This document shows positions 2,137 through 3,136 of a DNA stretch of 3,308 bases, piece by piece. The notes below the pieces were generated by a model. The model saw only the letters and a list, made by a program, of their open reading frames with translations, did not search any database and was not told the origin of the DNA. The stretch comes from a virus (lineage: Duplodnaviria; Heunggongvirae; Uroviricota; Caudoviricetes): the IMG/VR virus record IMGVR_UViG_2778261360_000015, positions 1-3,308 of that record; one strand, 5' to 3'. Numbering within the stretch: the first letter of the stretch is position 1; every line of letters begins with the position of its first letter. The position numbers were made by a program, and so were the translations under genes.

Positions 2137-2624
2137 TGATTCACCTCCTGCCTGTCGTCCGGCATTCGCTCACTACAGCTTATCCAACCATCCGGAGTTA
2201 CCGGAGAGTTGCCATCCAGCGCGTTCAACTTGTAAGCCTGGCTTACAGGTTCGGCACTATGAAGCATGGCTGCGCGGCAGGCGTTCCAGCCTGTAGCGTA
2301 TGCAGCCGCTTTGCTGCTGTCTTCAACTGGCGCATCCTGCCAATACATTTCTTCCGGCACTATCGGCGCTGGAGGGGCGGCAAATAGATATCCGCCAAAG
2401 TCAGGAAGCTCTCCAATGGCCTGTACGAACTTTTGTTTGCCTACGTCAACTCCTAATGGGTAATGAGCTATAATCTTTGCCACCGGCTCTGTTTCCAGCG
2501 ATACCAGTGCAATTCGTGCCAGTTCTTCCGCTTCTTCTGCTGGCAGTACAACATTGCTACCAGGTCCGTATGTTTCGCGCCACTGCTTGATTGTCAGCAG
2601 TCGCCCTTTGGTAATAGTGATCAT
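2133..2624 (-). CDS. Ea22-like early-region phage protein; the C-terminus carries only the first part of a DUF551-like motif (apparently truncated)
   Basis: 163-aa ORF from the track. ATG at 2622-2624 overlaps the stop of the upstream 171-aa gene (ATGA at 2621-2624). The C-terminal EPVSQAYKL...DGWISCSERMPDDRQEV resembles the linker and start of DUF551 as seen in ead/Ea22-like prophage proteins (recalled pattern PVSQGYKLP.WIPVSERLPE), but the ORF stops about 13 residues after the Trp where DUF551 normally continues about 50 more residues to a THWMPLP end. GC content is visibly higher here than in int. Confidence 0.75.
   Translation of the reverse strand: MITITKGRLLTIKQWRETYGPGSNVVLPAEEAEELARIALVSLETEPVAKIIAHYPLGVDVGKQKFVQAIGELPDFGGYLFAAPPAPIVPEEMYWQDAPVEDSSKAAAYATGWNACRAAMLHSAEPVSQAYKLNALDGNSPVTPDGWISCSERMPDDRQEVNQ
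2144..2149 (-). promoter_or_regulatory. Shine-Dalgarno sequence (AGGAGG) for the 27-aa membrane-peptide ORF, embedded in the last codons of the Ea22-like gene
   Basis: Plus 2144-2149 is CCTCCT, which reads AGGAGG on the minus strand, 7 nt upstream of the ATG at 2134-2136. Confidence 0.5.
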
Positions 2625-3136
2625 GCCGCGTTTCCTTCTTTCTTATTAACAATCACACCGTCATATATTTCATTAAGGTGCCCTCTCAACTCCATGCGCC
2701 TTAATGCAGATAACATGTAATCGCATTCAACCTGCTTATTCCCGGTAAATGGCTTATCGTCAGGATTACCCCAACAGCAATTACCCCTGGGCCATCCATG
2801 TACTTTCCGTACTCTTCCGTTAACAACGTGAAGTAATCCCCAGCCGGGAGGTAAATCCTCAACTGAAATAATTTCCGGCTCACTAATAAAGAATCGCCAG
2901 TCGCCCATGCCAAGTGAGGGATTTTTACGGAAACGCTTTTTTCTATCTGCCAACAAGTCAGCACGAGAACACTTCGCCTCTATCAGGCATGATGCTGAAT
3001 TTCTGAATCCCATAGCATCTGGCTGTTCTCCGGTACTGGTTACAGCAACAAAGCGGTCATGAAAGCAAACCTTGAACCCGTTGCGCTTAAGGAACTTGTA
3101 CGCAATCTGACAGAGTTCGTGGTGTGTTAACGCCAT
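2621..3136 (-). CDS. PD-(D/E)xK nuclease-fold protein, probably MmcB-like (DUF1052) family
   Basis: 171-aa ORF from the track. AAGGAG (plus 3143-3148, read on minus) lies 6 nt upstream of the ATG at 3134-3136. Candidate active-site residues in the expected order: E7, D40 in QPDAMGF (nt 3017-3019), E53-A-K55 in CLIEAKCS (nt 2972-2980). The stretch IEAKCSRADLLADRKK matches the recalled MmcB-family signature (EIKSSRADFRADRKW-like). Assignment is by eye only. Confidence 0.8.
   Translation of the reverse strand: MALTHHELCQIAYKFLKRNGFKVCFHDRFVAVTSTGEQPDAMGFRNSASCLIEAKCSRADLLADRKKRFRKNPSLGMGDWRFFISEPEIISVEDLPPGWGLLHVVNGRVRKVHGWPRGNCCWGNPDDKPFTGNKQVECDYMLSALRRMELRGHLNEIYDGVIVNKKEGNAA

Follow-up and report, generated by a model that had tools for sequence, protein, structure and literature searches.

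The MmcB protein of Caulobacter crescentus is an SOS-induced endonuclease needed for resistance to mitomycin C and cisplatin, and is thought to make substrates for translesion synthesis (PMC9578287). The family to which it gave its name, PF06319 (MmcB-like), has been related to the archaeal Holliday junction resolvases (PMC1189080, PMC3424549). Here we examine a gene of a lambdoid, Shiga toxin (Stx)-type prophage, the open reading frame (ORF) at positions 2621-3136 (minus strand, ATG start, 171 amino acids (aa)) of a 3,308-nucleotide (nt) stretch of viral DNA (IMG/VR record IMGVR_UViG_2778261360_000015, positions 1 to 3,308), which as a whole is referred to below as the window. The window is the int-xis end of the prophage, and every gene in it lies on the minus strand. 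The protein can best be placed in an uncurated sister family within the MmcB/archaeal Holliday junction resolvase (AHJR) branch of the PD-(D/E)xK superfamily. We put the probability at roughly 0.5 that it is an early-expressed, structure- or lesion-specific endonuclease serving the replication, recombination or repair of the element's own DNA.

Family and fold of the protein

Aligned with hhalign, the profile of the target family and that of MmcB match over 99 columns (97.7% probability, E 2.1e-12), D40 of the target falling opposite D39 of MmcB. A profile built from distant family members also matches the sequence of 3dnx (SPO1766 of Ruegeria pomeroyi) at E 1.7e-4, the alignment pairing ...PDaiGf...lIECKvSRsDFlaDkK... 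with ...VDVMGL...VIECKSSRADFQADAKW. In our searches 3dnx is itself an MmcB-like protein (PF06319, E 5.9e-32), and the published classification places it in the same family (PMC3424549). The helix signature S-R-x-D-x-x-x-D-x-x-K (ECKSSRADFQADAKW) is common to the target and to MmcB/3dnx. Scanned singly, 10 of 37 distant members give weak matches to PF06319 (best E 2.9e-4), while matches to the Hjc family PF01870, all sub-threshold, are obtained with 15 of 31 and 19 of 37 members. These two sets of faint matches are consistent with each other, as PF06319 was originally linked to the archaeal Holliday junction resolvases.

The target protein itself has no match among the Pfam models at E<=1, nor among those of NCBIfam or PADLOC, so that the gathering threshold of PF06319 (22 bits) is not reached and the direct Pfam match that had been envisaged for it is absent. 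Its matches among the sequences of the PDB are at chance level, and a Foldseek comparison of its model with the PDB gave no significant match; against the viral models of BFVD, the same program retrieved uncharacterised phage proteins along with several labelled MmcB-like. The target matches PHROG 9263 at E 1e-120, and its PHROG matches are all of unknown function save a faint one, to the PHROG that bears the name "DNA repair protein". One search returned 308 homologs, mostly from Enterobacterales and all unnamed, and an exhaustive profile search returned 3,270 cluster representatives (50% identity) at E<=1e-3, 2,449 of them at E<=1e-10.

In one distant member of the family, 428 aa long, a TniB/AAA_22-like ATPase (Pfam E 3e-6) has the nuclease domain as its C-terminal part, a pairing of ATPase and PD-(D/E)xK nuclease that recalls the proteins of Tn7-type transposition.

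A confident AlphaFold2 model computed from 31 homologs (predicted local distance difference test score 83.7, predicted template modelling score 0.79) has the canonical alpha-beta-beta-beta-alpha-beta order, with D40 at the start of strand beta2 and both E53 and K55 on beta3. The core fold order and a conserved catalytic D...(D/E)-x-K on beta2 and beta3, which are the marks of the PD-(D/E)xK superfamily, are thus both present, and the small restriction-endonuclease-fold protein announced in a preliminary description of this DNA is borne out by the model and by the alignment with MmcB. The residue numbering given there was checked and is right (E7, P39-D40, E53-A54-K55, with the motif IEAKCSRADLLADRKK spanning residues 52-67), as is the position of the ORF.

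The conservation of the active site was counted over an alignment of 243 homologs, 130-260 aa in length, the most distant of which share about 35% identity with the target. D40 is an aspartate in 238 of 238 homologs aligned at that position, E53 is conserved in 238 of 240 and K55 in 238 of 241. Near-invariance extends to E37, D60, D64, K67, R70, G78 and R81, and E137, R146 and R147 of the C-terminal helix are highly conserved. Position 7 is a glutamate in about 56% of the homologs and an aspartate in about 14%. The catalytic arrangement proposed earlier therefore stands for D40, E53 and K55, and fails for E7, which by this alignment is not a conserved catalytic residue. Substitution of the active site in most homologs, which would have spoken for a non-catalytic role, is not what is seen: retention of D40, E53 and K55 in at least 99% of some 240 homologs is the signature of a working active site. 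The target protein is probably an active DNA-cutting enzyme, and its activity would be that of a metal-dependent (probably Mg2+) DNA endonuclease.

Genomic contexts of homologs

The homologs are found in several kinds of mobile element. Three virulent Ackermannviridae of different genera, Vi01 (Kuttervirus), Menlow (Taipeivirus) and Kamild (Limestonevirus), and also the 157-kb Vibrio phage K493, have a homolog directly upstream of the DNA primase gene (Table 1), a homing endonuclease being inserted between the two in Kamild. These primase-linked homologs are about 203-227 aa long and resemble the target only in the N-terminal catalytic core of about 110 residues (residues 4 to ~113 matched, 38-46% identity, E 1e-15 to 4e-18). 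In Vibrio phage MAR10 the homolog follows a primase/helicase and an SNF2-type helicase, within a replication module and between helicase and polymerase genes. The nin regions of prophages carry homologs too: one in Providencia has the order Dam, Lar-like gene, nuclease homolog, RusA, Q antiterminator, and in Morganella the homolog sits between NinB and NinF/NinG.

On IncFII plasmids, a homolog 66-67% identical to the target occupies the leading region (for instance 6977-7486 of one examined stretch), in the order ssb, DUF905, parB-like gene, psiB, psiA, homolog, hok (of the hok/sok locus). Its ATG overlaps the stop codon of psiA (TGATG), with GGAGG ahead of it. The gene is missing from plasmid F itself and, as there is no space for it next to psiA in the interval from psiB to hok, it is an insertion that only certain F-like plasmids have. 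The IncI2 plasmid pKPC_CAV1596-78 encodes a 100% identical protein (6001-6516 of the examined stretch) about 2.6 kb from the mobC-relaxase operon, on its divergent side; by analogy with the biology of IncI plasmids, this side would be the leading region. A homolog is also carried by a Salmonella plasmid with a Dot/Icm-type transfer system. The phage-plasmid P7 (NC_050152.1, 88993-89664) has a 96% identical copy under the names upf89.0 / upf89.5, beside the Ea22-like upf88.3. Altogether 865 plasmid records have a match to the gene, and the P7 copy probably explains many of those on 'non-mobilizable' plasmids of 90-100 kb.

A survey of neighbour families, taking two ORFs on each side of the gene at 31 loci from different species, found Ead/Ea22 (7), DNA methylases (6), DUF551 (4), NinG (2), TraC (2) and TraG (2), with RusA, RdgC, the Pol III theta subunit and an excisionase seen once each. 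The gene is common in Escherichia coli, where a copy of at least 90% DNA identity is present in 928 of 5,426 complete genomes (about 17%), at 1,049 chromosomal and 248 plasmid places; every one of the copies listed is annotated "hypothetical protein". Carriers include Shiga-toxin prophages, P1/P7-type phage-plasmids, and IncI2 and IncFII resistance plasmids.

Movement of the gene as a single-gene cassette

The nuclease gene had been proposed to form a module with the Ea22-like gene that follows it and the short membrane peptide gene beyond. The immediate neighbours were compared among 80 near-identical copies (97-100% protein identity) on E. coli prophage contigs, the viral scan that supplied them having returned only near-identical E. 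coli prophage copies; 72 of these have at least 1.5 kb of sequence downstream. The same downstream gene (at least 80% coverage) is present in only 8 of the 72, a partly similar, mosaic Ea22-like gene in 49 and something else in 15, and the gene of the 27-aa peptide lies within 1.5 kb in 37. Upstream, the gene is unchanged in 18 of 79 copies. Conversely, many related Stx phages have int, xis, DUF4222 and the peptide and lack the nuclease gene.

The plasmid pKPC_CAV1596-78 has the gene with almost nothing of its surroundings. The identity of its DNA to the window (98.3%) is almost confined to positions 2610-3149, that is, the gene and about a dozen flanking bases. Since identity ends at the edges of the gene and the neighbours differ among near-identical copies, the nuclease gene is passed as a single-gene cassette between phages, both temperate and virulent, phage-plasmids and conjugative plasmids. 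The comparison with pKPC_CAV1596-78 points to recent exchange of the single gene between lambdoid phages and plasmids.

Only one other piece is shared between this plasmid and the window: 114 nt at window positions 2259-2372, within the Ea22/DUF551-like ORF, are 95.6% identical to 5571-5684 of the plasmid stretch, where they fall in a different hypothetical gene. Sub-genic mosaic pieces of Ea22-like genes are common to phages and plasmids.

The proposed three-gene module does not survive this comparison. Neither the order nor the co-occurrence of the nuclease, Ea22-like and peptide genes is conserved even among near-identical copies, and the combination is absent from the copies in nin regions, on plasmids and in virulent phages, whose neighbours are quite different. 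The nuclease gene is, as had been stated, translationally coupled to the Ea22-like gene, its TGA overlapping the next ATG as ATGA. Because the partner at this junction varies between copies, the overlap is an operon junction and not the sign of a functional module.

Two other pairings were considered and rejected: one of toxin-antitoxin or abortive-infection type with the 27-aa peptide, as the two genes do not consistently co-occur, and a restriction-modification pairing with nearby methylases, as at most 6 of 31 loci have a methylase within two ORFs of the gene on either side.

Proposed function and alternative explanations

The site scan found no promoter-like or terminator-like site on the minus strand around the ORF, and this, along with the overlaps of stop and start codons, makes the target an internal gene of a tightly packed operon. 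As that operon is the leftward early one, the gene product, a putative stand-alone endonuclease of the MmcB-like or archaeal-Holliday-junction-resolvase-like branch, would be made early after infection or induction, along with exo, bet and gam. What it cuts would be a structure or a lesion in the DNA, such as an intermediate that is branched, damaged or at a stalled fork, and not a particular sequence; specificity of the former kind seems more likely because there is no cognate methylase or immunity gene and because the neighbour in virulent phages is a primase. Cleavage might then benefit the element's own genome, as it enters the cell or replicates, through replication restart, recombination or repair, a role that would parallel the one proposed for cellular MmcB in tolerance of crosslink damage. 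The genes found near homologs (exo/bet/gam, RusA, NinB/NinG, primase, helicase/polymerase, RdgC and DNA methylases) lean toward DNA metabolism, and the primase synteny in virulent phages, taken with the place in plasmid leading regions, fits a gene that serves the element's own DNA.

Several points weigh against such a role. The gene is accessory in lambdoid phages and, since many close relatives of the prophage do without it, must be dispensable for growth. A plain resolvase would be redundant in carrier phages that also have RusA or NinG. The leading regions of plasmids and the early regions of phages are equally typical places for counter-defence genes. No curated family model fits the protein, and our literature search found no study of any phage or plasmid protein of this family, and thus no biochemical or genetic data on its members; the main text of a 2024 Nature paper on leading regions has no mention of a nuclease of this kind (PMC11541004).

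A more general reading, possible though rather doubtful in our view, is that of an 'entry and establishment' nuclease of phages and plasmids, made first when DNA enters the cell and processing either a DNA intermediate or a host factor. The target would then be the E. coli representative of a very large sister family of MmcB specific to mobile elements. Coupled to the SOS inhibitor gene psiA in leading regions and to primase in virulent phages, it could enable replication or evasion. The main rival explanation, which we consider unlikely, is that the gene acts specifically in counter-defence or establishment and not in repair or recombination, with a nuclease made at DNA entry either destroying a host defence component or nucleic-acid signal or processing the entering DNA so that it escapes surveillance. 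The position of the IncFII homolog overlapping psiA, and that of the identical IncI2 protein near mobC and the relaxase, would suit this well, leading regions being enriched in anti-defence genes (PMC11541004). The accessory, mosaic and cassette-like character of the gene in lambdoid early regions and the orphan DNA methylases at 6 of the 31 surveyed loci would suit it too. However, our searches retrieved no known anti-defence protein with this fold or from this family, the only relative so far characterised is a repair nuclease, and primase synteny maintained across genera of the Ackermannviridae looks like that of a core replication-module gene and not of a fast-evolving counter-defence gene. 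A true Holliday junction resolvase, dimeric and Hjc-like, that resolves the recombination intermediates of phage Red or host RecA, is a quite improbable identity for the protein. The PF01870 matches and the adjacency to recombination genes in nin regions speak for it, as does the spacing of E7, D40, E53 and K55, which we take to resemble that of the Hjc catalytic tetrad, but every one of those matches is below the Pfam threshold, the acidic residue of helix 1 is not conserved, and RusA or NinG is already available in the same phages.

That the gene is instead the nuclease effector of a prophage anti-phage defence or exclusion module, acting with the downstream Ea22-like protein and the 27-aa membrane peptide, now appears very improbable. 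Such a function was suggested in the preliminary description, and the three ORFs are indeed translationally coupled in the window (ATGA at 2621-2624 and at 2133-2136) at an int-proximal position typical of prophage accessory cargo. The variable neighbours described above, the many phages with the peptide and DUF4222 genes and no nuclease, and the copies on plasmids, in nin regions and in virulent phages, which lack these neighbours, all tell against it. A scan of PADLOC-DB 2.0 at E<=1 gave no match for the nuclease or the Ea22-like ORF and a chance-level one for the DUF4222 ORF, the 27-aa peptide lying outside the scan. A host-protective gene would moreover be of no gain to virulent phages, and the defence function finds no support in the primase synteny of those phages or in the plasmid leading regions. 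Some PD-(D/E)xK families have lost catalysis, and the target could in principle be an inactive DNA-binding protein that has kept the nuclease fold; with D40, E53 and K55 retained as they are down to about 35% identity, this is hardly credible.

Through its assignment to the MmcB-like nuclease lineage, a gene that is among the commonest without annotation in lambdoid exo-xis regions and plasmid leading regions acquires a function open to testing. Phage induction and plasmid establishment, whose early steps are poorly understood, gain a candidate DNA-processing factor.

Layout of the window

The target ORF is real, and its position, signals and neighbours are listed in Table 1. The closest phage match is PhiR5_1 (98.6% identity), in which the nuclease gene is flanked by two Ea22 genes and comes after gam, bet, exo, orf60a, orf61 and a TraR-like gene, a position within the exo-xis part of the leftward early operon.

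Table 1. Features of the window (positions of the whole stretch) and, in the last four rows, the primase-linked homologs (positions of the stretch examined for each phage)
Feature	Position	Strand	Remarks
Integrase	75-1361	-	
DUF1233 excisionase	1395-1649	-	
44-aa ORF	1668-1802	-	
DUF4222 ORF	1806-2048/2084	-	
27-aa hydrophobic ORF ('membrane peptide', MSWPDAIVTLGVVFAAAFVVFSICRWG)	2053-2136	-	too short for the ORF list
163-aa Ea22/DUF551-like ORF	2133-2624	-	matches DUF551 and phrog_60
MmcB-like PD-(D/E)xK nuclease-fold ORF	2621-3136	-	171 aa, one domain throughout; disordered tail after about residue 160
ATGA overlap	2621-2624	-	target TGA 2621-2623, ATG of next ORF 2622-2624
Codons E53-K67 (EAKCSRADLLADRKK)	2936-2980	-	catalytic E-x-K on beta3 and S-R-x-D-x-x-x-D-x-x-K helix signature
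Codon for D40, PD motif	3017-3019	-	predicted metal ligand, start of strand beta2
TGA stop of upstream Ea22-like ORF	3138-3140	-	1 nt ahead of target ATG
3' end of second Ea22-like ORF	3138-3308	-	
Shine-Dalgarno AAGGAG	3143-3148	-	6 nt before target ATG, within the 3' end of the upstream Ea22-like ORF; by sequence inspection
Homolog in Vi01	5980-6597		
Homolog in Menlow	2480-3088		
Homolog in Kamild	2480-3094		
Homolog in K493	2480-3163		

Beyond the nuclease gene, the ATG of the 27-aa peptide overlaps the stop codon of the Ea22/DUF551-like ORF in the second of the two ATGA junctions. This Ea22-like ORF is 163 aa long in the window as against 252 aa in PhiR5_1 (2098-2856 of the compared stretch), which is otherwise 98-99% identical, the two sequences diverging between 2213 and 2349 of the window. 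Only the last 16 residues of the 163-aa ORF match DUF551, and they match the start of the model. At the other end, past the stop codon of the integrase gene, positions 1-74 match records that are annotated there as a junction of prophage and host (a truncated yehV in VT1-Sakai, and a direct repeat from prophage insertion in YYZ-2008), so the end of the prophage with the attachment site probably lies in the window.

Comparison with known systems

The genes of the lambdoid nin and exo-xis regions (RusA, NinG/Rap, NinB/Orf and Exo) share with the target their neighbourhoods and early expression, and are likewise small, dispensable and mosaically swapped, but RusA, NinG and NinB have no relationship to it in sequence or fold. 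The target gene is not among the exo-xis genes considered in a modelling study of exo-xis proteins (PMC8614690). The archaeal resolvases Hjc and Hje (PF01870, AHJR-like clan) are, as is the target, small PD-(D/E)xK enzymes, with nearly equal spacing of the acidic and lysine catalytic residues. Their similarity to the target family, seen as weak profile matches in about half of its members, is much weaker than that of MmcB. The target family further differs from them in that the glutamate of its N-terminal helix is not conserved, in an extra C-terminal region (about 115-160) and in its co-occurrence with the RusA or NinG resolvases.

The likeness to the MmcB-like proteins (PF06319, formerly DUF1052 / COG5321, including 3dnx and Caulobacter crescentus MmcB) is closer. 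Both have the same single domain of about 150-170 aa with a PD-(D/E)xK core, and have in common the signature D ... E-x-K-x-S-R-x-D-F-x-x-D-x-K, a conserved arginine after the next strand (R81 in the target, R76 in the MmcB-like proteins) and a C-terminal helix with an Arg-Arg pair. The target family has motifs of its own (GMGDWRF, LPxGWGLL and NKQxEC) that are absent from MmcB, and its carriers are gamma-proteobacterial phages and plasmids, whereas MmcB is mostly chromosomal, SOS-regulated and found in alpha-proteobacteria (PMC3424549, PMC9578287). The family is uncurated and "hypothetical" throughout, and what is new here is its assignment to the MmcB-like lineage rather than a new type of system.

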